The position numbers and the translations under genes were made by a program. Of a stretch of 20,000 nt of DNA, positions 1 to 10,532 are shown in pieces. Every line of letters starts with the position of its first letter. The stretch's first letter is position 1. Source of the DNA: an uncultured virus (IMG/VR IMGVR_UViG_3300038828_000071). Lineage: Duplodnaviria > Heunggongvirae > Uroviricota > Caudoviricetes. A model generated the notes under the pieces. The model was not told the origin of the DNA and made no database searches. It worked only from the letters and a program-made list of their open reading frames with translations. The stretch spans positions 58,536-78,535 of IMG/VR virus record IMGVR_UViG_3300038828_000071. One strand, given 5' to 3'.

Positions 1-62
1 GGTATTAAAGATTCGTATTTCATATTAAAATTATTTTTAAGTTAAAGTCTCGTGTTTCAAAG

Positions 63-96
63 TCGGCAACGAACGCCAACCGCCAAACCGTTAACA
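63..96 (+). repeat. Right half of an attC-like site, left arm presumably outside the window
   Basis: 63-82 TCGGCAACGAACGCCAACCG is identical to 9893-9912 (right arm of site 10) and is followed by GTT at 90-92. Confidence 0.75.
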
Positions 97-1305: not shown

Positions 1306-3009
1306 TTATATTGCTATTGATATTTTAATTAAACTTTCAGCATTAGCTTCTACTAACTTTTTTGCTACTAATGGAACAACTGAATTTCCTATTTGTTTTT
1401 TTTGTTCTGTTTGATTTCCTTTAAGTATATAATCTTTTGAAAAGCCTTGAATTTCTTTCAGTTCTTTTATTAATAACATTCTCATTTTGATATCAATAAT
1501 ACCATAAATAGCCATAAACTCCTTAATCTTTATGGTCATTTCAGAATCATCCTCAAACACTGCAATTGCAATTCTTCCTTGTTCTGCTTCAACAAGATAT
1601 GGAGGTCTTTTATCCATTCTTGCAATCAAAGTGAATGCAGGACGTTCTATGCTTCCACCAGCAGACTTATATTGCGGATTAAGAAGATAGTGCTGTTTTC
1701 TTGATGCTAAAATAGTGCCGTGTGGTTCATCTATCGATTTACCAACGTTACTAAATTGCGTGTCCATTACCCAATGCTCAGCCGTTACAAAATTATGTTT
1801 TGGCGTTGTTGTAACTGTCCCTGCTGGATAATCTATTGAAGTACTGTCAGAATTAGAATAACTCATCATTAAATAAGAGATTTTTGATATTCGATCCTTT
1901 GTTGTTAATGTTTGAGCAGGTAATTCAACTTCTCTATTTGTGCCATTTCCGTAATAAGACGACAGAAAATGTGACTGAACGAATGCATGATGATCTGATG
2001 TGGTTATAGTTCCAGCGGGAAGTTCTATATCTGAAACCTTTCCTTCAGGTCTGCCGGAATAGTATTTTTTTATAAATGCAGCTTTCACAATTCCAATACG
2101 TCCTTGTGTGCTAATAGTTGGGCATGGTTCATCAACTCCTGGTGGATTATGATGTCCTGATTGATTTATTGAATTGTACTTTAAAATCCATTTGTCCTTT
2201 CCACCTGCAACAAACTTTACTAATCCGGCATGTATTCTCTTTAATGTCGCATCTGAAAGTGGAATTTTTCTATCAAATATANNNNNNNNNNTGCCTTCTA
2301 TGTCAAAGTCTAAAACTTCTTTTACTGCTTTCCATGGTTTTTTATTATATTCAAAAAGATTTCCCATTTCTTTTTGTTTTTTTCTCGGATCATAGTGAGT
2401 TGTTTCTGGAAATGCTATTGGAAGACCGTGTTTTGCAAATATTCCGAAGTATCTATCTCTGGATGTGTATGCGCCAAAGTCGGCTGCATTTAGCATTTTC
2501 CAATTGTAATTATATCCCATGTGCTGCACAGTACGCACCCAATACATATAGTCGCATCCTTTATGCATATCTACTGGACGTCCGTTATTATCTAATTTTC
2601 CCCAAGACATAAACTCTCTGACATTTTCAATATATAAGTAGTCCGGGTTCAAATGCTCCAGGTACATCATTAAATCCCAAGCCAATGTGCGACTATCTCC
2701 GTCACGTGGTAAGCCGCCTTTTGCTTTACTGTAATTTGTACATTCAAGAGAAGCCCAAATATTGATGTAGCAATCCGGTTCTGCGAGTTTTAATTTATCA
2801 ACCAAAACCTTTAAATGTTCAACTACTTTAAAATCACGAATATCTTCCGTAAAATGTAAAGTTTTTGGATGATTTGCTTTGTGTGATGCTATTGCTTTTG
2901 CATCGTGATTAACACAAGCTACAACATCTAATCCTGCCAAATGGATTCCGGTAGAAGTTCCACCAGCTCCGGCAAACAAATCTATCCAGTAAATTTTTGG
3001 AGTTTCCAT
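1306..3009 (-). CDS. C5 cytosine DNA methyltransferase (Dcm-like, phage type)
   Basis: Motif I DLFAGAGG, catalytic motif IV variant SLECTNYS, motif VI ENV, motif VIII SRDR, motif X GNSV. The ORF spans an N-gap. Confidence 0.93.
   Translation of the reverse strand: METPKIYWIDLFAGAGGTSTGIHLAGLDVVACVNHDAKAIASHKANHPKTLHFTEDIRDFKVVEHLKVLVDKLKLAEPDCYINIWASLECTNYSKAKGGLPRDGDSRTLAWDLMMYLEHLNPDYLYIENVREFMSWGKLDNNGRPVDMHKGCDYMYWVRTVQHMGYNYNWKMLNAADFGAYTSRDRYFGIFAKHGLPIAFPETTHYDPRKKQKEMGNLFEYNKKPWKAVKEVLDFDIEGXXXXIFDRKIPLSDATLKRIHAGLVKFVAGGKDKWILKYNSINQSGHHNPPGVDEPCPTISTQGRIGIVKAAFIKKYYSGRPEGKVSDIELPAGTITTSDHHAFVQSHFLSSYYGNGTNREVELPAQTLTTKDRISKISYLMMSYSNSDSTSIDYPAGTVTTTPKHNFVTAEHWVMDTQFSNVGKSIDEPHGTILASRKQHYLLNPQYKSAGGSIERPAFTLIARMDKRPPYLVEAEQGRIAIAVFEDDSEMTIKIKEFMAIYGIIDIKMRMLLIKELKEIQGFSKDYILKGNQTEQKKQIGNSVVPLVAKKLVEANAESLIKISIAI
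2282..2291. other. Assembly gap (10 N)
   Basis: Run of N inside the methyltransferase gene. Confidence 1.
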
Positions 3010-4715: not shown

Positions 4716-5546
4716 TTAATTATTATTTGTAATTTGATTAATGTACATAAACATATCAGAATACTTTGTTTTAAGATATTCTTCATTACCTGTTCTTGTC
4801 TTTAATAACATCCAGTTCTCGCAAAATTTATCAATGCCTTCTATTTGTCCATGTTTTTTGATATACTCATACATTGCTAAATTTATATAATCATCTTCAT
4901 TTACTGCAGCATCTAATATTTTGGTAGCCATTACATGACCAATTCCTTGTATTCCGGTTATGTTATCAGTAACATCACCAACAAGTAATTGATATGCCAA
5001 ATTACGCTTTGCTTTATTTTGATCTACTAAATGATAATCTCCATTTTTAAAATTATAATGAAGCCCGGGAATTTGTTGCAAATCTTTATCATCAGAAATA
5101 ATAAAAGTATTTTTATTGCAAACCATGGATATCAAATCATCGGCTTCAATATCATCATATTTGAAAACAATTCCATATTTTCTGAATGCGTTAGGTATAG
5201 CTGCTAAATCTTGCATCTTACCATCATACATATAAGGATCAACTTTATCAGTTCTATTGCCTTTATATTTTTTAGTAAATCCAATTTTATCTCTGAAAGT
5301 ATTTTCAGATTTACCGGAAAAGAAAAATACTAAATATTTAAATTTAATAGAATTATTTATTTCGTTTATGATGCTATCAAGAGCTTCATCTACGGTTAAT
5401 TGTTCACCAGTATCTTGTATGTTCTTATAGATACGATAAGTAATTATGTATTTATACTTATCGGCATCAATAAGAGCTACCATATCAGAAGTATTATATA
5501 CTTCTTGTGAGTTTGATGATGTTGGTTTAAATGGTTTAATTTCCAT
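4716..5546 (-). CDS. 5'-3' exonuclease / flap endonuclease (T7 gp6 / T4 RNase H-like)
   Basis: LIDAD, YKGNR, EADD, DKDL and H3TH motif GDVTDNITGIQGIG. Confidence 0.9.
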   Translation of the reverse strand: MEIKPFKPTSSNSQEVYNTSDMVALIDADKYKYIITYRIYKNIQDTGEQLTVDEALDSIINEINNSIKFKYLVFFFSGKSENTFRDKIGFTKKYKGNRTDKVDPYMYDGKMQDLAAIPNAFRKYGIVFKYDDIEADDLISMVCNKNTFIISDDKDLQQIPGLHYNFKNGDYHLVDQNKAKRNLAYQLLVGDVTDNITGIQGIGHVMATKILDAAVNEDDYINLAMYEYIKKHGQIEGIDKFCENWMLLKTRTGNEEYLKTKYSDMFMYINQITNNN

Positions 5547-5578
5547 AATTATTAATGTTTATTATTTATTATTTAACT

Positions 5579-5614
5579 TATAAACGAACCTGTACTTCGT
5601 TTACAGAGATGTTA
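5579..5614 (+). repeat. Array-heading site copy 1 (candidate attI-like site)
   Basis: 35/36 identical to 8100-8135; internal hairpin TAAACGAA/TTCGTTTA; ends in the GTT that begins cassette A. Confidence 0.7.
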
Positions 5615-5623
5615 TGTGCCATT

Positions 5624-5863
5624 TTAAGAGCCGACACTGAAAATGATACGCCTTACAACTCCATCTGAATTTATTTTATCAGATTGTGCCATCACAATGC
5701 GTTCAGTATATCCTTGCTTGCTTTCATTCCATACCCATTTCTGTCTGTTGCCATCATAGTCATACAATATTCCTTCTATTTCACAAATTTTAGTACAATC
5801 ATCTATTTTTGTACTCATTTGCATAACGTCACCACCAGCGACATAAAATTCGGTTTTTATCAT
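5624..5863 (-). CDS. Cassette A hypothetical protein (MIKTEF..., 79 aa)
   Basis: ATG at 5863 preferred over GTG at 5905. Bounded by GTTATGTGCC (5611-5620) / GGCACATAAC (5891-5900). Confidence 0.7.
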   Translation of the reverse strand: MIKTEFYVAGGDVMQMSTKIDDCTKICEIEGILYDYDGNRQKWVWNESKQGYTERIVMAQSDKINSDGVVRRIIFSVGS

Positions 5864-5893
5864 TTCAATTAAGATTTGTGAAGAAAAAACGGC

Positions 5894-6024
5894 ACATAAC
5901 AGCACCTAACCAAAATTGGCGGTTTAGTGGTTATATCAACGTTTCTGCTTCGGTTTAACATTATTTTATATTCAAGTTTTGTGCTTCGTAATCGCCAACT
6001 TCGGTTAGCTGCAAAACGTTAGCG
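5894..6024 (+). repeat. attC-like site 1 (131 bp)
   Basis: ACATAAC...GTTAGCG; arms CTAACCAAAATTGGCG (5906-5921) / CGCCAACTTCGGTTAG (5993-6008). Confidence 0.85.
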
Positions 6025-6048
6025 GTAATGTAAAAGATACCGCCTAAA

Positions 6049-6456
6049 CTATTCGTATTTAATAAATAATTCATTTACTTTTTCTTCTAATTCGTTTAAA
6101 AAAGTAGTGTTTAGAATTTGTTTTAATCTATCTTTTTCAAATTTTTCATTACCATTCCAAAAAGAAATTGAAACGCTTTCTTTTGAGTTTATATAACTGA
6201 TTTTATCAAACCAAAAATTAAACTGAACATTTTTTTTAGGAAATTTTAAATGATAAGATAGATTGAAGTTGTTATCTATTTGTCTCCAAAATTCATAGTT
6301 AACAATTTTAATTCCGTCATTATAGCTTTCACTTGCATTTGGAAATTTAGACATAAACTCTCTAAATCTATTTTCAGTAAGCAATACACTACCGCTAACA
6401 CTCGTTTGCACGCATTGCGGTTTTTGTGGTTCAATGATATTTTTATTTCGCATCAT
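6049..6456 (-). CDS. Cassette B hypothetical protein (135 aa), starts inside site 2
   Basis: Cassette ends GTTAGCGGTA (6018-6027) / TACCGCTAAC (6390-6399). Confidence 0.7.
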   Translation of the reverse strand: MMRNKNIIEPQKPQCVQTSVSGSVLLTENRFREFMSKFPNASESYNDGIKIVNYEFWRQIDNNFNLSYHLKFPKKNVQFNFWFDKISYINSKESVSISFWNGNEKFEKDRLKQILNTTFLNELEEKVNELFIKYE

Positions 6457-6525
6457 ATTTATTTTTAAGTTGAAAATTTGTCGTTACGAACTCCGCAACG
6501 ACGAGCAAGCGAGATAACGTTACCT
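6393..6525 (+). repeat. attC-like site 2 (133 bp)
   Basis: Arms CTCGTTTGCACGCATTGCGG (6401-6420) / CCGCAACGACGAGCAAGCGAG (6493-6513); GTT at 6519. Confidence 0.8.
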
Positions 6526-6531
6526 GCAAGG

Positions 6532-6747
6532 CTACTCATCCGTTTCAAAATCACATTCCAATTCATCTAACAAAATGGGGTGAATACTATTTGCTTCAAA
6601 TCCACTTTCATTTGCAGCATCATAAACCATCATTTCCCAATCCTCGACCAGTTTGTTAATCTTACGTTTGAAATTTTTAAACTGCTCTTCCGTAATAGGT
6701 TTGTCAGTTTCAAAGTCAAAATTTAGTGTTCCTGTAATTGTTGCCAT
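6532..6747 (-). CDS. Cassette C acidic hypothetical protein (71 aa)
   Basis: Cassette ends GTTACCTGC (6519-6527) / GCAGGTAAC (6792-6800). Confidence 0.75.
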   Translation of the reverse strand: MATITGTLNFDFETDKPITEEQFKNFKRKINKLVEDWEMMVYDAANESGFEANSIHPILLDELECDFETDE

Positions 6748-6793
6748 TTTATTGTTGTTTAAAAATTAAGTTCCTACTGATAAACCGCCCAGC

Positions 6794-6887
6794 AGGTAAC
6801 AGCGGTTTGGCAAAAGCTGCCAGAAAGTTTTGTGCGAAAATTCAAGTTCCCGTTAGGCAGCCTTCGCCAAGCCGCAAAACGTTAGGG
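6794..6887 (+). repeat. attC-like site 3 (94 bp)
   Basis: Arms GCGGTTTGGCAAAAGCTGCC (6802-6821) / GGCAGCCTTCGCCAAGCCGC (6856-6875). Confidence 0.88.
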
Positions 6888-6892
6888 TGCAT

Positions 6893-7165
6893 TTAAGACA
6901 CCCCAACCAATTCGCAACTTTTGAAAAATTCGTCCATTTCAGACTTATTCTCAAACTTTACTTTTAAACCTTCGACAATTCCTTCTTCGGTTCTGGGTTT
7001 TACGATTGTTAGCCAATGCCCGTCAGAACAATGACAAGTATCAATTCCGCAACCGCCATTGTCTTGGCTCATTACAATTTTCCCTTTTGTTTCAACTGCT
7101 CCAGCTTCATTTTCAAAAGTTCCGTCAGGTTTTACACCTTCCCATTTAAAAGACTCTATTTTCAT
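6893..7165 (-). CDS. Cassette D hypothetical protein (90 aa, CxxxxCHC motif)
   Basis: Cassette ends GTTAGGGTGC (6881-6890) / GCACCCTAAC (7184-7193). Confidence 0.75.
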   Translation of the reverse strand: MKIESFKWEGVKPDGTFENEAGAVETKGKIVMSQDNGGCGIDTCHCSDGHWLTIVKPRTEEGIVEGLKVKFENKSEMDEFFKSCELVGVS

Positions 7166-7186
7166 TTTGATTTAAATAAAAACGCA

Positions 7187-7316
7187 CCCTAACAAAGTAT
7201 AACCAAAAGCGGGGCGACATTCGCAAATTGGTAATTTGTGCTGCTAATTAACTTTGTACCGAAGGATAAGGCAGCAGCACTTAATCCCCGCCTTCGGTTA
7301 TACTCGACCGTTATGT
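7187..7316 (+). repeat. attC-like site 4 (130 bp)
   Basis: Arms AGTATAACCAAAAGCGGGG (7196-7214) / CCCCGCCTTCGGTTATACT (7286-7304). Confidence 0.88.
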
Positions 7317-7568
7317 GGCATTATAACAAATCAACCGAACTGCTTTCCAAAATCCGTGTTGTTTAATTAAATTATCCACATAGTGTCTATCTGGCGAGTG
7401 TCCTTCACTTCCGTATATATTATACAAATAAGATGGATAGCACTTTGAACGAAAAGAATAACGCCACATAACACGCAATATAAGTAACCAATGGTGTAGT
7501 GGTTTATTCAAGTTCTGTTTTTCAATTTTACGTTTCATATAATTTGATATTAAGTTTTTCAAAATCAT
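7311..7568 (-). CDS. Cassette E hypothetical protein (start 7568 or 7538, both inside site 5)
   Basis: Cassette ends GTTATGTGGC (7310-7319) / GCCACATAAC (7463-7472); the stop codon is the TAA of the core. Confidence 0.55.
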   Translation of the reverse strand: MILKNLISNYMKRKIEKQNLNKPLHHWLLILRVMWRYSFRSKCYPSYLYNIYGSEGHSPDRHYVDNLIKQHGFWKAVRLICYNAT

Positions 7569-7596
7569 TGGCTACTCATATTGCCATCCGTTATAT
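7466..7596 (+). repeat. attC-like site 5 (131 bp)
   Basis: Arms GCAATATAAGTAACCAATG (7475-7493) / CATTGGCTACTCATATTGC (7566-7584). Confidence 0.88.
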
Positions 7597-7602
7597 GCCA
7601 GT

Positions 7603-8061
7603 TTAAGAAACGTACTGCGAACATATTGCAATTACTTTTTGACATTGTTCTACATCAAACATTCCTATATGACATAAATCACGTTCAATGTTCATCTGTT
7701 TACTTAGCCATAAATAAGCCTTATTCCTATTTCCTAAATTAGGTATAAACTCTTTCCAAATCTTATTTATCAATCCTGTTTTAGCTATTTGGTCAAAGTA
7801 ATAATGAGCCTGTTTCTTTGCGTCCCTAAGTTCTTTATTTGCTAATCTCCCTAAGGCATTATCAGTTCCTTTATGTACACCAACGTAAGCATCACATGGC
7901 TTACAAATATAAATCATACCATAACTTTTACCATAAACAAATGAACTATCTATATACTCGGTTTTTGAGCCACAATAAGGGCAAATAAAACCGGCATATA
8001 ACACACGGTCATCAGCAATATTTGCCGTGCTTTGTGGATTATTTTCTGCTAATTTTGTCAT
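7603..8061 (-). CDS. Cassette F zinc-finger protein, DUF3268-like
   Basis: CPYCG...CKPCDAYVGVH...LGRLA...AH...AYLWL...HIGMFD pattern. Cassette ends GTTATATGCC (7590-7599) / GGCATATAAC (7993-8002). Confidence 0.8.
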   Translation of the reverse strand: MTKLAENNPQSTANIADDRVLYAGFICPYCGSKTEYIDSSFVYGKSYGMIYICKPCDAYVGVHKGTDNALGRLANKELRDAKKQAHYYFDQIAKTGLINKIWKEFIPNLGNRNKAYLWLSKQMNIERDLCHIGMFDVEQCQKVIAICSQYVS

Positions 8062-8099
8062 TTGTTTTTCAATTAATATTATTATTTAATTATTTCGAG

Positions 8100-8135
8100 T
8101 ATAAACGAACCTGTACTTCGTTTACAGGGATGTTA
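8100..8135 (+). repeat. Array-heading site copy 2, in place of the right arm of site 6
   Basis: Near-identical to 5579-5614; not complementary to the left arm at about 8003-8030. Confidence 0.7.
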
Positions 8136-8151
8136 GCGGAGATTGTTCTAA

Positions 8152-8355
8152 TCACGTTTCAAAAGACGAAATAAAATTGTAAATTTCTTCAACTTTATCA
8201 ATATCAATCTCGTTTTTAAATTCATAATTAAAAACTACTTTTTTATTACTTGATTTAATTTCTTTTGTAAATAAGTTTAAAGATAAACATCCTTTAATAT
8301 ACCAATTTCCTGCTTTATGATAACCAAGATTTTGTAATTTTTCAAATAATAACAT
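8152..8355 (-). CDS. Cassette G second gene, hypothetical (67 aa)
   Basis: ATG ORF overlapping the upstream gene by 14 nt. Confidence 0.65.
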   Translation of the reverse strand: MLLFEKLQNLGYHKAGNWYIKGCLSLNLFTKEIKSSNKKVVFNYEFKNEIDIDKVEEIYNFISSFET

Positions 8356-8521
8356 TTTTCTGTTTTTTATTAATTAAACTTTGCGCAGCTCTTTTTGTTT
8401 TAGTAGTGGAGTTTGAACCTTTCCACAACCACATTGCATAATCAAAATCATTGTCAACTATCCAACTTATCAATTTGCCTTTATATTTTCCAAATTGTGC
8501 TTTTTGTTCTTCTGATTTCAT
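8342..8521 (-). CDS. Cassette G first gene, small FGKYKG-motif protein (DUF3820 / exonuclease X C-terminal-like)
   Basis: FGKYKGKLISWI...DYAMWL; ATG at 8521. Cassette ends GTTAGCGGAG (8132-8141) / CTCCGCTAAC (8550-8559). Confidence 0.7.
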   Translation of the reverse strand: MKSEEQKAQFGKYKGKLISWIVDNDFDYAMWLWKGSNSTTKTKRAAQSLINKKQKNVII

Positions 8522-8552
8522 AAAAAATTCCTTATTAACGACCCACAACCTC

Positions 8553-8685
8553 CGCTAACAGCAGTTACACAAGATTTGGGTTTTAGGTTTTCTGTATTCA
8601 TTGTTTTGTACTTTTAAATATTAGTGATTAATCGAAGATTTAGGCTTACTTTTCCCAAACCTCGTGTAGCTGCGAACCGTTAGCC
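8553..8685 (+). repeat. attC-like site 7 (133 bp)
   Basis: Arms GCAGTTACACAAGATTTGGG (8561-8580) / CCCAAACCTCGTGTAGCTGC (8654-8673). Confidence 0.88.
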
Positions 8686-8691
8686 GCAAGC

Positions 8692-9039
8692 CTAAGAAAC
8701 AACCTGCAACAAATCAGCATTCTCAAAAATATTTCCGACAACTTTGTTTAAGTTACCCAGACTATTCGCAAGCGACACAATACGAGTTTCATCATCAAAA
8801 TAGCGACAATACCAAGCGGCTTCATCTTCATTCCAGTAAACAATTTGCAATGCCTTTGTGTCGCAATTTTCAATTATATCTCCTTCGTAAACTTCCGTTC
8901 CGTTTATCTGTGCATCTTCCCTGCCAGTAAATTGCATTACTTCTATTTCAGGATGTTCGTTGTCGTATGGCAAAATTGACCTGTAAACCATTTTTGACAA
9001 TGCCTTGTCGTAAAATCTGAATTTAATTTGTCTGTTCAT
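8692..9039 (-). CDS. Cassette H YopX family protein
   Basis: IKFRFYD...MQFTG...EVYEGDI...VVGNIFEN signature. Cassette ends GTTAGCCGC (8679-8687) / GCGGCTAAC (9066-9074). Confidence 0.9.
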   Translation of the reverse strand: MNRQIKFRFYDKALSKMVYRSILPYDNEHPEIEVMQFTGREDAQINGTEVYEGDIIENCDTKALQIVYWNEDEAAWYCRYFDDETRIVSLANSLGNLNKVVGNIFENADLLQVVS

Positions 9040-9067
9040 TTTTATTGTTGTTGTGAGAAAGGCCAGC

Positions 9068-9163
9068 GGCTAACAGCGGTTTTGCAATAGCCGCCTGACA
9101 GTTCTCGGTTAATAATTAAGTTCATTCTTTGGCGGCCATCGCAAAGCCGCCCAAACGTTAGCG
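9068..9163 (+). repeat. attC-like site 8 (96 bp)
   Basis: Arms GCGGTTTTGCAATAGCCGCC (9076-9095) / GGCGGCCATCGCAAAGCCGC (9131-9150). Confidence 0.88.
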
Positions 9164-9169
9164 GCAACC

Positions 9170-9520
9170 CTAAGAGTGCCACTCGGTAACATCGAACTCC
9201 GATGGAAGTAACCCAAGTTGTTTGCCATTTTCTAAAATAGCAGAAACAGCACCGTAGGAATTAACCCATACATAATACTCACCATCTTTTAAGGCTATGG
9301 TATCTTTTTCAATTCCTAAAATTGGTGCAAATTCCATTAAATCAGGTGTAACAGTTTTAGCCAATTTTACTTTTAAAGGAACTCTACCCCGAAAATTTGC
9401 AGGATATGCAGATCTGCCTTTTCTATCCGATTGCCATTTTAAAGCGGGAGAAGTAAGGGCAGCCGCTAACATCTGCTCATACGTAAGCGGGTTTTTAGTG
9501 GTAATTTCAAGTGTGTTCAT
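9170..9520 (-). CDS. Cassette I hypothetical protein (ATG at 9520 inside site 9)
   Basis: Cassette ends GTTAGCGGC (9157-9165) / GCCGCTAAC (9462-9470). Confidence 0.7.
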   Translation of the reverse strand: MNTLEITTKNPLTYEQMLAAALTSPALKWQSDRKGRSAYPANFRGRVPLKVKLAKTVTPDLMEFAPILGIEKDTIALKDGEYYVWVNSYGAVSAILENGKQLGLLPSEFDVTEWHS

Positions 9521-9595
9521 ATAATTTAAGTTATTAAAGTTTGACAAATTTGTATTTCAAAATCCCCGCCTACGCATAGCAGACGGGCGTTATGC
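9464..9595 (+). repeat. attC-like site 9 (132 bp)
   Basis: Arms TCTGCTCATACGTAAGCGGG (9472-9491) / CCCGCCTACGCATAGCAGA (9565-9583); one extra C in the left arm. Confidence 0.85.
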
Positions 9596-9850
9596 TCCAT
9601 GCCCTCCGACCCTCGTGTTCCAACTTTCAATACAAGTTTTAGCACACCATTCAGCATCGTGCCTTAATGTTGCATCTGTCCTTTCAACCCTACAATGCGA
9701 GCCAGTGCATTTAATTGTAACTTTTCTGCTTTTAGTAGATTTATTTCCTATAAATGTTATCTTAGGCTCGCATCCGCAAAATGGGCACGGGAGCATAACA
9801 TCGGCTAAAAAAACATTGCCGTTATTGTCGCTATATTCAACTTTCTGCAT
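9590..9850 (-). CDS. Cassette J Lar-like (restriction alleviation) zinc-ribbon protein
   Basis: LPCPFCG...C....C...WNTR pattern. Cassette ends GTTATGCTCC (9589-9598) / GGAGCATAAC (9790-9799). Confidence 0.75.
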   Translation of the reverse strand: MQKVEYSDNNGNVFLADVMLPCPFCGCEPKITFIGNKSTKSRKVTIKCTGSHCRVERTDATLRHDAEWCAKTCIESWNTRVGGHGA

Positions 9851-9924
9851 CTTATTTAATTTTAGTTGTTAATGAAAATTTATCTTTATAAATCGGCAAC
9901 GAACGCCAACCGTCAACGTTAGCG
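9793..9924 (+). repeat. attC-like site 10 (132 bp, degenerate pairing)
   Basis: CGG...CATTGCCG pairs partly with CGGCAACG...CCG; correct length and cores. Confidence 0.65.
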
Positions 9925-10128
9925 ACAATTCTTAGCAACTGTAAGAACCCACTTTAGTTGTTCATCATCCAACCATCTGGGATATACTTGTCCAGCCTTT
10001 GTTTCTTTATAACTTTTATTGTATTCAGCGAAAAGTGCATCAATGAATTTTACATCATCAAAAGAACTGTCGCTAACAGCACCTATACCCAATTGGGCAG
10101 TTTCGTTGTTTTTTGAAGTTTCTTCCAT
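9919..10128 (-). CDS. Cassette K hypothetical protein (69 aa)
   Basis: Cassette ends GTTAGCGACA (9918-9927) / TGTCGCTAAC (10068-10077), 15/16 when extended; stop lies in the core. Confidence 0.7.
   Translation of the reverse strand: MEETSKNNETAQLGIGAVSDSSFDDVKFIDALFAEYNKSYKETKAGQVYPRWLDDEQLKWVLTVAKNCR
10071..10105 (+). repeat. Left half of attC-like site 11, right arm missing
   Basis: CGCTAACAGCACCTATACCCAATTGGGCAG resembles the site 1 left arm (TAACAGCACCTAACC); no complementary arm before the GTT at 10288. Confidence 0.6.
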
Positions 10129-10149
10129 TTTATTAAGTTTATTTGTTAT

Positions 10150-10251
10150 TCAATGAATTGAATCTATTACCTCGCCATATACTGAATGAGGCAATCCATA
10201 AATCCAACCATCTGTACCCGCTATTTTTGCTCTAAATTTTATTTGTTTCAT
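10150..10251 (-). pseudogene. Truncated YopX-like N-terminal fragment (33 aa)
   Basis: My translation: MKQIKFRAKIAGTDGWIYGLPHSVYGEVIDSIH*, with the IKFRA...WIYG YopX start. Not in the ORF track. Confidence 0.65.
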
Positions 10252-10307
10252 TTGTTTTGTTTTAAGTTGTTATTCGTTTATGTGTATGTTATGTGCAATA
10301 AATTTTA

Positions 10308-10532
10308 CTACCCTATTGCATAACCAGAATTTTCTTGTTCCGAAACTTCCTTTGGTTTATTAATACCTACACAAGCCAATATCTTTTCAGCAGCATCCCT
10401 ACTTTGCCAAAAATCAGGATGTGCAATTACCCTAATTTCATCATCCTCATAAATAGCACTTATCTGTTCAATTATCTTAATAATTTGCATACGCTTGTGT
10501 ATGTATTTTTTTGTTTTTGTTTTTGTGTCCAT
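10308..10532 (-). CDS. Hypothetical protein (74 aa)
   Basis: ATG ORF following the last GTT core at 10288. Confidence 0.65.
   Translation of the reverse strand: MDTKTKTKKYIHKRMQIIKIIEQISAIYEDDEIRVIAHPDFWQSRDAAEKILACVGINKPKEVSEQENSGYAIG

Follow-up and report, generated by a model that had tools for sequence, protein, structure and literature searches.

By definition, an integron comprises one integrase gene and a single attI site adjoining it. Phage arrays of the CALIN type (clusters of attC sites lacking an integrase) have already been published: Qi et al. 2023 (PMC9892861), in the excerpted text, report CALINs in virulent phages, with two to four attC sites recognized by integron models and one flavobacterial host, and a further source, likewise taken in excerpt, describes integrons as nearly absent from the Bacteroidetes (PMC9024848). 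Here, we describe a 20,000-nucleotide stretch of DNA (the window) that comprises positions 58,536 to 78,535, the final 20 kb, of the uncultured virus record IMGVR_UViG_3300038828_000071 (Caudoviricetes), a record of 78,535 bases that is 99% complete by a tool estimate. Its region 5611-10287 constitutes an integron-like array of approximately 11 cassettes with attC-like hairpins between them, accompanied by a recurrent element that we term the class-2 site, made up of the 8-mer TAAACGAA, a centre of 6-7 nt, a second 8-mer, TTCGTTTA, a 5-nt spacer, the dinucleotide AT and the junction G↓TTA (arrow, junction). We consider it probable (roughly 0.65) that class-2 sites are the attI-type primary, sequence-specific sites of an integron-like cassette system common to Bacteroidota and their phages.

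The phage carries the following copies, two of which lie next to minus-strand genes that are also given here:

5579..5614, plus strand: class-2 site 1, TA-TAAACGAA-CCTGTAC-TTCGTTTA-CAGAG-ATG↓TTA, at the array's left edge
8100..8135, plus strand: class-2 site 2, 35/36 identical to site 1, internal to the array
10273..10291, plus strand: class-2 site 3, reduced by erosion of its left arm to the right arm, spacer and ATG↓TTA, at the array's right end
window -227 to -193, plus strand: class-2 site 4, outside the window, at the left end of a solo cassette (motif match at genome position 58324, window -211)
4716..5546, minus strand: 5'-3' exonuclease (FEN-like), a backbone gene adjoining site 1 on the left
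7603..8061, minus strand: DUF3268 zinc-finger gene, between junction 7590 and class-2 site 2

Exact matching bore out the initial annotation in its report of two near-identical 36-mers, whose sole mismatch is A/G, and of a third motif at 10273-10291 with equal spacing; it had also correctly placed the first site at the array's left edge, where it adjoins the exonuclease gene. The 36-mer had no match in shuffled sequences. The core motif TTCGTTTA-N5-ATGTTA occurs exactly at 5596, 8117 and 10273 in the window, on the plus strand each time, and four times in the whole 78,535-base phage, again on the plus strand only, compared with 0.005 matches expected from a composition model and two matches summed over 300 shuffles. 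Site 4 keeps both 8-mers and ATGTTA, combined with a 6-nt loop (GTTGAC) and the spacer TAGAG. The distance to the adjoining minus-strand start codon is 32 nt for site 1 (ATG of the exonuclease gene, 5546) and 38 nt for site 2 (ATG of the DUF3268 gene, 8061).

The paired 8-mers can form a hairpin, with energies of -5.1 to -5.8 kcal/mol for sites 1 and 2 and of -10.9 to -11.7 kcal/mol for site 4. This conserved hairpin contains two G-C pairs, and across an alignment of 23 phage and bacterial sites 89% of the cells pair. It may act as a double-stranded palindrome instead of a folded hairpin. Another reading is that class-2 sites are intrinsic terminators that insulate the cassettes from the backbone genes. 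On the minus strand, a terminator scan lists an alternative, terminator-like hairpin at 8128-8110 with a T-rich tail behind it, and Qi et al. 2023 (PMC9892861), in the excerpted text, mention that one phage CALIN is bordered by a terminator containing inverted GTTRRRY boxes. This alternative fold of site 2 is the only one that passes the scan. The stems of sites 1 and 2 are weak, site 4 has no following T run, and the bacterial versions of the element stand at the heads of cassettes, not at their ends, which makes a terminator function very unlikely.

What follows the class-2 motif is the beginning of a cassette. The G↓TTA junction lies directly to its right in all four phage copies, and in three of them the cassette after the site contains an exactly complementary TAAC box. 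This arrangement is general in the array, in which a cassette start of the form TTAxxxxxx is complementary to the xxxxxxTAAC box of the same cassette. When each GTTA 10-mer was compared with its reverse complement within 1.5 kb, 34 pairs with 0 or 1 mismatch were obtained; all exact pairs (9/9) belong to the array region or to the solo cassette bordering the window on its left, and together with three one-mismatch pairs they link 11 junctions to TAAC boxes situated rightward in their own units. What lies to the right of G↓TT is a cassette, closed by a TAAC box complementary to its own start, and this anatomy, like the conservation of the site, is a matter of observation. The features concerned are:

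5611, 6018, 6519, 6881, 7310, 7590, 8132, 8679, 9157, 9589 and 9918, plus strand: junctions linked by the GTTA/TAAC pair scan
5611..5620, plus strand: junction core GTTATGTGCC, which opens cassette 1, with its exact complement GGCACATAAC at 5891-5900
8132..8141, plus strand: junction core GTTAGCGGAG, which opens cassette 7, with its exact complement at 8550-8559
10287..10296, plus strand: junction core GTTATGTGCA after site 3, with an imperfect partner only, ATTGCATAAC at 10315-10324 (2-nt indel)
5891-6027, 6390-6528, 6791-6890, 7184-7319, 7463-7599, 8550-8688, 9065-9166, 9461-9598 and 9790-9927, plus strand: the nine attC-like sites
7993..8002, plus strand: orphan TAAC box GGCATATAAC in the 5' part of the DUF3268 gene, the exact complement of junction 7590
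10068..10104, plus strand: orphan TAAC box TGTCGCTAAC with an attC left arm of the site A type, the right arm missing
1..93, plus strand: loop and right arm of the attC of the solo cassette, whose left end is class-2 site 4

Eight of the attC-like sites share a layout in which TAAC is followed by 1-3 nt, a long imperfect stem-loop, a one-sided bulge of 5-6 nt ending in C, and G↓TTA; the remaining one, site J (9790-9927), folds poorly. Since the stem mismatches on the plus strand are A.C, corresponding to G.T on the minus strand, the minus strand folds better, as in the bacterial sites. The long attC stem is absent at the cores 5611, 8132 and 10287. The claim that these three cores lack a complementary arm therefore holds as far as the stem is concerned; it does not extend to the boxes, because partner TAAC boxes (7993 and 10068) exist at two of them, and the three cores are not the only poor ones, given the state of site J. 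Downstream of the orphan box at 7993, class-2 site 2 occupies the place where the attC stem would stand, and junction 9918 has its exact complement in TGTCGCTAAC at 10068.

Outside the phage, the motif was sought in one genome per species (185,579 species) with a strict pattern requiring both 8-mers, a loop of 4-9 nt, N5 and ATGTTA. The scan returned six loci, representing five contigs of a single Bacteroidota metagenome-assembled genome (MAG) and Rhabdobacter roseus, and thus two genomes only. A relaxed scan yielded 21 matches in the MAG and 7 in R. roseus, of which 16 and 3, respectively, were marked as real copies by their flanks. Alignment of the resulting 23 sites shows that the right 8-mer, AT and GTT are invariant or nearly so, that the 5-nt spacer is constant within a genome and differs between genomes, and that the sequence beyond GTTA varies from copy to copy. 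All 19 bacterial and all four phage copies end at (A/G)T(G/A)TT(A/G), with variable DNA beyond. An exact 9-mer partner box is found within 5 kb at 10/19 bacterial junctions, compared with 17/386 other GTTA on the same strands, and these boxes precede attC sites belonging to the phage families; phage attC site A, for instance, aligns with several bacterial sites at 70-76% identity over ~140 nt. To the left of the bacterial copies there are short conserved modules, a promoter-like box in most cases, and then ordinary chromosomal genes. In the MAG, the cassette behind one copy (locus L040, 5108-7260) encodes an AbiGi-like protein, with an Abi_2-family gene ~0.5 kb beyond it on the opposite strand. 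Two metagenome loci (L045, L046) were treated as chance matches because their flanks are devoid of cassette features.

These comparisons also bear on the proposal that class-2 sites are the eroded right arms of ordinary attC sites. Sites 2 and 3 sit 130 and 210 nt to the right of the TAAC boxes of the preceding cassettes, and site J demonstrates that attC stems do decay in this array. Yet the class-2 motif is conserved from the phage to two distant bacterial genomes, whereas attC arms vary with each cassette; the attC sites have a C before GTTA and a GC-rich arm, where class-2 sites have AT and an AT-rich 8-mer; and a left TAAC partner is missing at sites 1 and 4 and at the bacterial copies examined. 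An origin by erosion is accordingly very improbable. The motif was never found together with an attC left arm or in front of non-cassette genes, either of which, according to the initial annotation, would have spoken against an entry site.

A trace of cassette exchange was found when Logan contigs from four runs were compared with window positions 5400-10400. One of these runs, X3, belongs to another study and contains a 704-nt contig that covers 8132-8682 with 22 differences. Homology begins at 8132; the 128 letters before it are different and close with an attC-type right arm, and other DNA follows after 8682. The cassette 8132-8682 therefore follows an attC site in that sample and class-2 site 2 in the window, with the break at G↓TTA. 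X4 and X6 carry 9588-9901 and 8778-9141, respectively, on separate short contigs, and nearly the whole stretch is present in X1 and X2, which may represent the source sample. The X1 contigs (window 5655-8748) break at or near attC sites, at 6369/6446, 7349/7350, 8559/8560 and 8748, and at 8555 and 8682 there are loose ends where attC site G continues into other DNA within that sample. Three further X1 joints (5619>9893, 5536>7799 and 8090>8473) were not used, because their sides measure only 20-24 letters.

The orientation of the array follows from two comparisons. Cassette 6520-6881 and the uncultured phage LR756502 have two segments in common, one consisting of the first 18 nt of the cassette and the other running from ~35 nt before the TAAC box through the stem-loop, while the open reading frames (ORFs) between these common ends are unrelated; the conserved unit is therefore a cassette start together with the attC on its right. 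In the bacteria, a class-2 site, sense ORFs and attC sites succeed each other on one strand. Together, the shared unit and the bacterial order identify plus as the top strand, in agreement with the initial annotation, and rule out the minus strand in this role. The phage genes run backwards within their cassettes, and several begin inside attC loops. The predicted start codon lies within the attC loop in 5/11 in-window cassettes, probably in a sixth (9461-9547), and in the solo cassette at the left edge. Stop codons of these cassettes are located inside, or 0-21 nt from, the TAAC complement of the left junction. The five cases are:

6390-6456, 7463-7538, 7993-8061, 9790-9850 and 10068-10128: start-in-loop cassettes, in which the ORF crosses the left arm and the TAAC box

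Related phage arrays offer several further observations. LR756502 (locus L003, 3731-3790 and 4116-4185) contains an ORF-less unit of ~70 nt twice, each time between two G↓TTA junctions; the two units flank a homologue of window cassette 3, and their end is loosely class-2-like, with two extra bases. The cultured Flavobacterium phage 2A (KU599887; L004 560-3520, L038 5830-6610) possesses a seven-cassette array with the same attC type, annotated in its record as hypothetical proteins only, in which three successive cores, GTTAGCGGTA, GTTACCTGCA and GTTAGGG..., appear in the window's order with different cassette bodies; no class-2-like 8-mer was found at the left boundary of this array. The loop of attC site B (window 6406-6504; L004 3001-3099) is 90% identical over 99 nt to that of Flavobacterium psychrophilum phages (2A and four FPSV), although the stem arms and both core boxes differ. 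It contains an ATG and ~17 conserved codons, which continue as a 135-amino-acid ORF in the window and, by our own reading of the sequence, end at a stop after 28 codons in 2A.

Class-2 sites can also be weighed as a regulatory palindrome or RNA hairpin of the phage backbone, such as an operator, a 5' untranslated region or a processing signal, in which GTTA would be present by chance and which would have become a secondary insertion hot spot. Three phage copies are situated upstream of minus-strand genes, at 32, 38 and 78 nt from the start codon, sites 1 and 2 have an extra AT-rich leader sequence in common, most MAG copies follow closely on a conserved promoter-like TAAkGkTG-AAA box, and the palindrome is conserved with little covariation. 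On the other hand, the site points in opposite directions in phage and bacteria with respect to genes, but in the same direction with respect to cassettes and attC sites, and conservation ends at the junction in 4/4 phage and 19/19 bacterial copies. Moreover, none of the 15 window matches to the Bacteroidota -7 motif TAnnTTTG falls at a class-2 site, and sigma-70-like matches are not enriched (20 versus 22.5 in shuffles). A purely regulatory role thus appears unlikely.

A connection between sites of this layout and a recombinase emerges in R. roseus. Its genome encodes a 377-amino-acid recombinase whose best NCBIfam match is a XerA-type model, at a score below the cut-off, and which aligns with the integron-integrase model in two pieces, skipping positions ~177-238. 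The sequence TGCGTATA-TTTAG-GA-G↓TTACAAGCA is located 100 nt past the recombinase stop codon; the cassette behind it encodes an esterase and has an exact partner box and an attC. Among 201 genomes of the same order (Cytophagales), 93 contain a match to this enzyme at E <= 1e-30, and the 18 best loci were inspected, all encoding proteins 52-62% identical to the query (itself excluded). Eight of the 18 loci show TGCGT(A/C)(T/A)A-N5-NN-G↓TT(A/G) 100-260 nt downstream of the recombinase gene, then cassettes, and in four of these eight the short flank contains a partner box with 0-1 mismatch; a site of this layout is absent at the other ten, two of which have less than 230 nt of flank. Several of the recombinase-adjacent sites have an inverted copy of the 8-mer just upstream. 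In several Cytophagales (L103-L111), TGCGTATTTTGTATTG repeats in direct and inverted orientation lie between the recombinase gene and the entry site, representing candidate accessory binding sites. Class-2 and recombinase-adjacent sites agree in layout, spacing and 6/8 letters of the 8-mer, and one MAG copy, TGCGTTTA, whose left arm carries a compensating change, is intermediate between the two 8-mers. Judged by sequence, this likeness is a resemblance of layout and not proof of a common enzyme. No class-2 copy of the TTCGTTTA type was found adjoining a recombinase gene, and a viral search with the recombinase alignment gave no match, and hence no phage-borne enzyme tied to the motif.

The attI-like reading thus draws on four lines of evidence: the G↓TTA junction at all phage copies, with an exact TAAC box in three out of four; the position of the motif at the head of variable cassettes in two Bacteroidota genomes, with similarity ending at GTTA; the presence of a site of the same layout behind a Xer-like recombinase gene in Cytophagales; and the existence elsewhere of cassette 8132-8682 behind an attC arm instead of a class-2 site. 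In this respect, the proposal of a dedicated attI-like entry site is supported, while its second part, a duplication of the site, is a conjecture.

Several results weigh against this reading. Covariation in the hairpin is thin, with three pairs showing double changes, a value matched by 46/500 shuffles. Under a simple attI model, the units preceding sites 2 and 3 would not be expected to carry orphan TAAC boxes. A search of the whole phage, which the initial annotation had called for, and of bacterial genomes revealed variable cassettes behind the motif and no clearly empty class-2 site, although site 3 (10273) may be unoccupied. The full class-2 motif was present in 0 other viral contigs. With regard to the enzyme, a six-frame search of the phage gave no PF00589 match and hence no tyrosine recombinase, and neither the MAG nor R. 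roseus has an integron integrase above the curated cut-off (TIGR02249). The dispersed sites carry TTCGTTTA and the recombinase-adjacent ones TGCGTATA, so that the use of a single enzyme for both is something we infer. Finally, the MAG, with 16 copies in a bin of 2.8 Mb distributed over many contigs, encodes only two recombinases of 300 amino acids, which are 27-30% identical to the Rhabdobacter enzyme and located on other contigs.

If class-2 sites are indeed attI-type sites, a Xer-like tyrosine recombinase would bind the 8-mers and the GTTA core and carry out strand exchange at G↓TT between the class-2 site and the attC of a circular cassette, the latter in the form of its folded minus (bottom) strand, such that new cassettes would enter adjacent to the class-2 site. 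With none found in the phage, the recombinase would have to be supplied by the host, or else the array may be a relic. The internal copies at 8100 and 10273 (sites 2 and 3) are most likely separate entry points, which deletions, or events resembling the formation of attI-type cassettes, may have brought next to truncated attC sites. Deletion of an attC right arm together with part of the neighbouring gene would explain both orphan boxes (7993 and 10068), as would, by analogy, the formation of attI-type cassettes known from mobile integrons (PMC12901181, in its excerpted text). As a weak hint of truncation and thus of a deletion, the 33-amino-acid ORF at 10150-10251 resembles YopX in 5/6 residues (BLASTP, E 0.014), with no Pfam match. 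It is tempting, if still tentative, to go further and propose that a lytic crAss-like phage without a recombinase keeps several docking sites of its host, at which a host Xer-type enzyme swaps accessory genes between replication genes, and that the attI of an IntI-free integron look-alike may thus be a portable, multi-copy module.

The setting of the array is that of a replication module. All genes in the window are encoded on the minus strand, including those for DnaB, HU, a Dda-like helicase, the sliding clamp, the FEN-type exonuclease, dUTPase and a C5 methylase, and the remaining genome encodes a crAss-type capsid and tail ring protein. Between clamp and exonuclease, the G+C content rises from 0.22-0.30 to 0.35-0.43. 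A Pfam search of 37 + 54 = 91 phage ORFs, with two large structural ORFs outside the scan, returned no recombinase, and Rfam gave a single, sub-threshold match. The cargo of the window's cassettes includes a Lar-like restriction-alleviation protein (9590-9850) and a YopX protein (8692-9039), and a gene for a Tad2-like protein (Thoeris anti-defence; genome 57585-57938, L036 19588-19938) is located ~370 nt left of site 4. A run of N, 10 visible and 40 in the whole record, interrupts the C5 DNA methyltransferase gene (1306-3009) at window ~2290-2300. No close relatives of the phage were recovered by an exonuclease search of viral contigs, and a hairpin search of these contigs with a fixed 7-nt loop returned 29 loci, none of them with a class-2 flank.

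No description of a docking site of this kind was found in the open-access literature: one that is defined by its sequence, exists in many copies per genome, is common to bacteria and a virulent phage, and is paired with a Xer-like enzyme instead of IntI. If the proposed role is correct, the site would provide a handle for finding such arrays, for which detection by current integron finders is not established, offer a testable recombinase substrate and suggest an explanation of how lytic phages without a recombinase of their own exchange accessory genes.

Several known systems invite comparison with the class-2 site. In the hyperplastic regions of T4-type phages, stem-loops associated with early promoters flank ORFs and are thought to act through homologous recombination. 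As in these regions, repeated hairpins lie between small accessory genes of a lytic phage, but class-2 similarity stops at the G↓TT crossover, and bacterial cassette arrays possess the site as well. In Xer-dependent integrating elements that use dif, a folded single-stranded partner is recombined by a Xer enzyme with a short double-stranded target, as we propose for class-2 sites; dif is a single chromosomal site, whereas class-2 sites are multi-copy and head cassette arrays.

A close parallel is the classical integron attI which, in the excerpted account of PMC9892861, is likewise a sequence-specific site that heads a cassette array and has its crossover at G↓TT, with additional motif copies resembling recombinase boxes upstream, a feature that class-2 sites share along with a promoter-like box upstream in bacteria, and with a first cassette whose start pairs with its own attC box. 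Unlike attI, class-2 sites lack an adjacent intI gene, the dispersed bacterial copies being flanked by ordinary genes, go with a Xer-like enzyme family, occur in multiple copies (16 in the 2.8-Mb MAG and 4 in the 78-kb phage), contain a palindromic pair of 8-mers and, in the phage, have cassette genes running toward them. Ordinary attC sites differ in possessing two inverted-box pairs that fold into a bulged hairpin, which class-2 sites lack, and in three of the four phage copies there is no TAAC box directly left of the hairpin. The DUF3268 unit (7591-8131), bounded downstream by the presumably attI-type class-2 site 2, recalls the delta-attI-type cassettes described in excerpts of PMC12901181, although those reside in clinical class 1 and class 2 integrons with IntI1, and for the internal class-2 copies deletion is an equally good reading. 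Phage CALINs, finally, resemble the present array as attC clusters without an integrase in lytic phages that can display an inverted GTTRRRY hairpin at their edge (PMC9892861); in contrast to the excerpted text of that report, in which no conserved entry site is defined in virulent phages, the array described here comprises ~11 cassettes and a boundary site held in common with bacteria.

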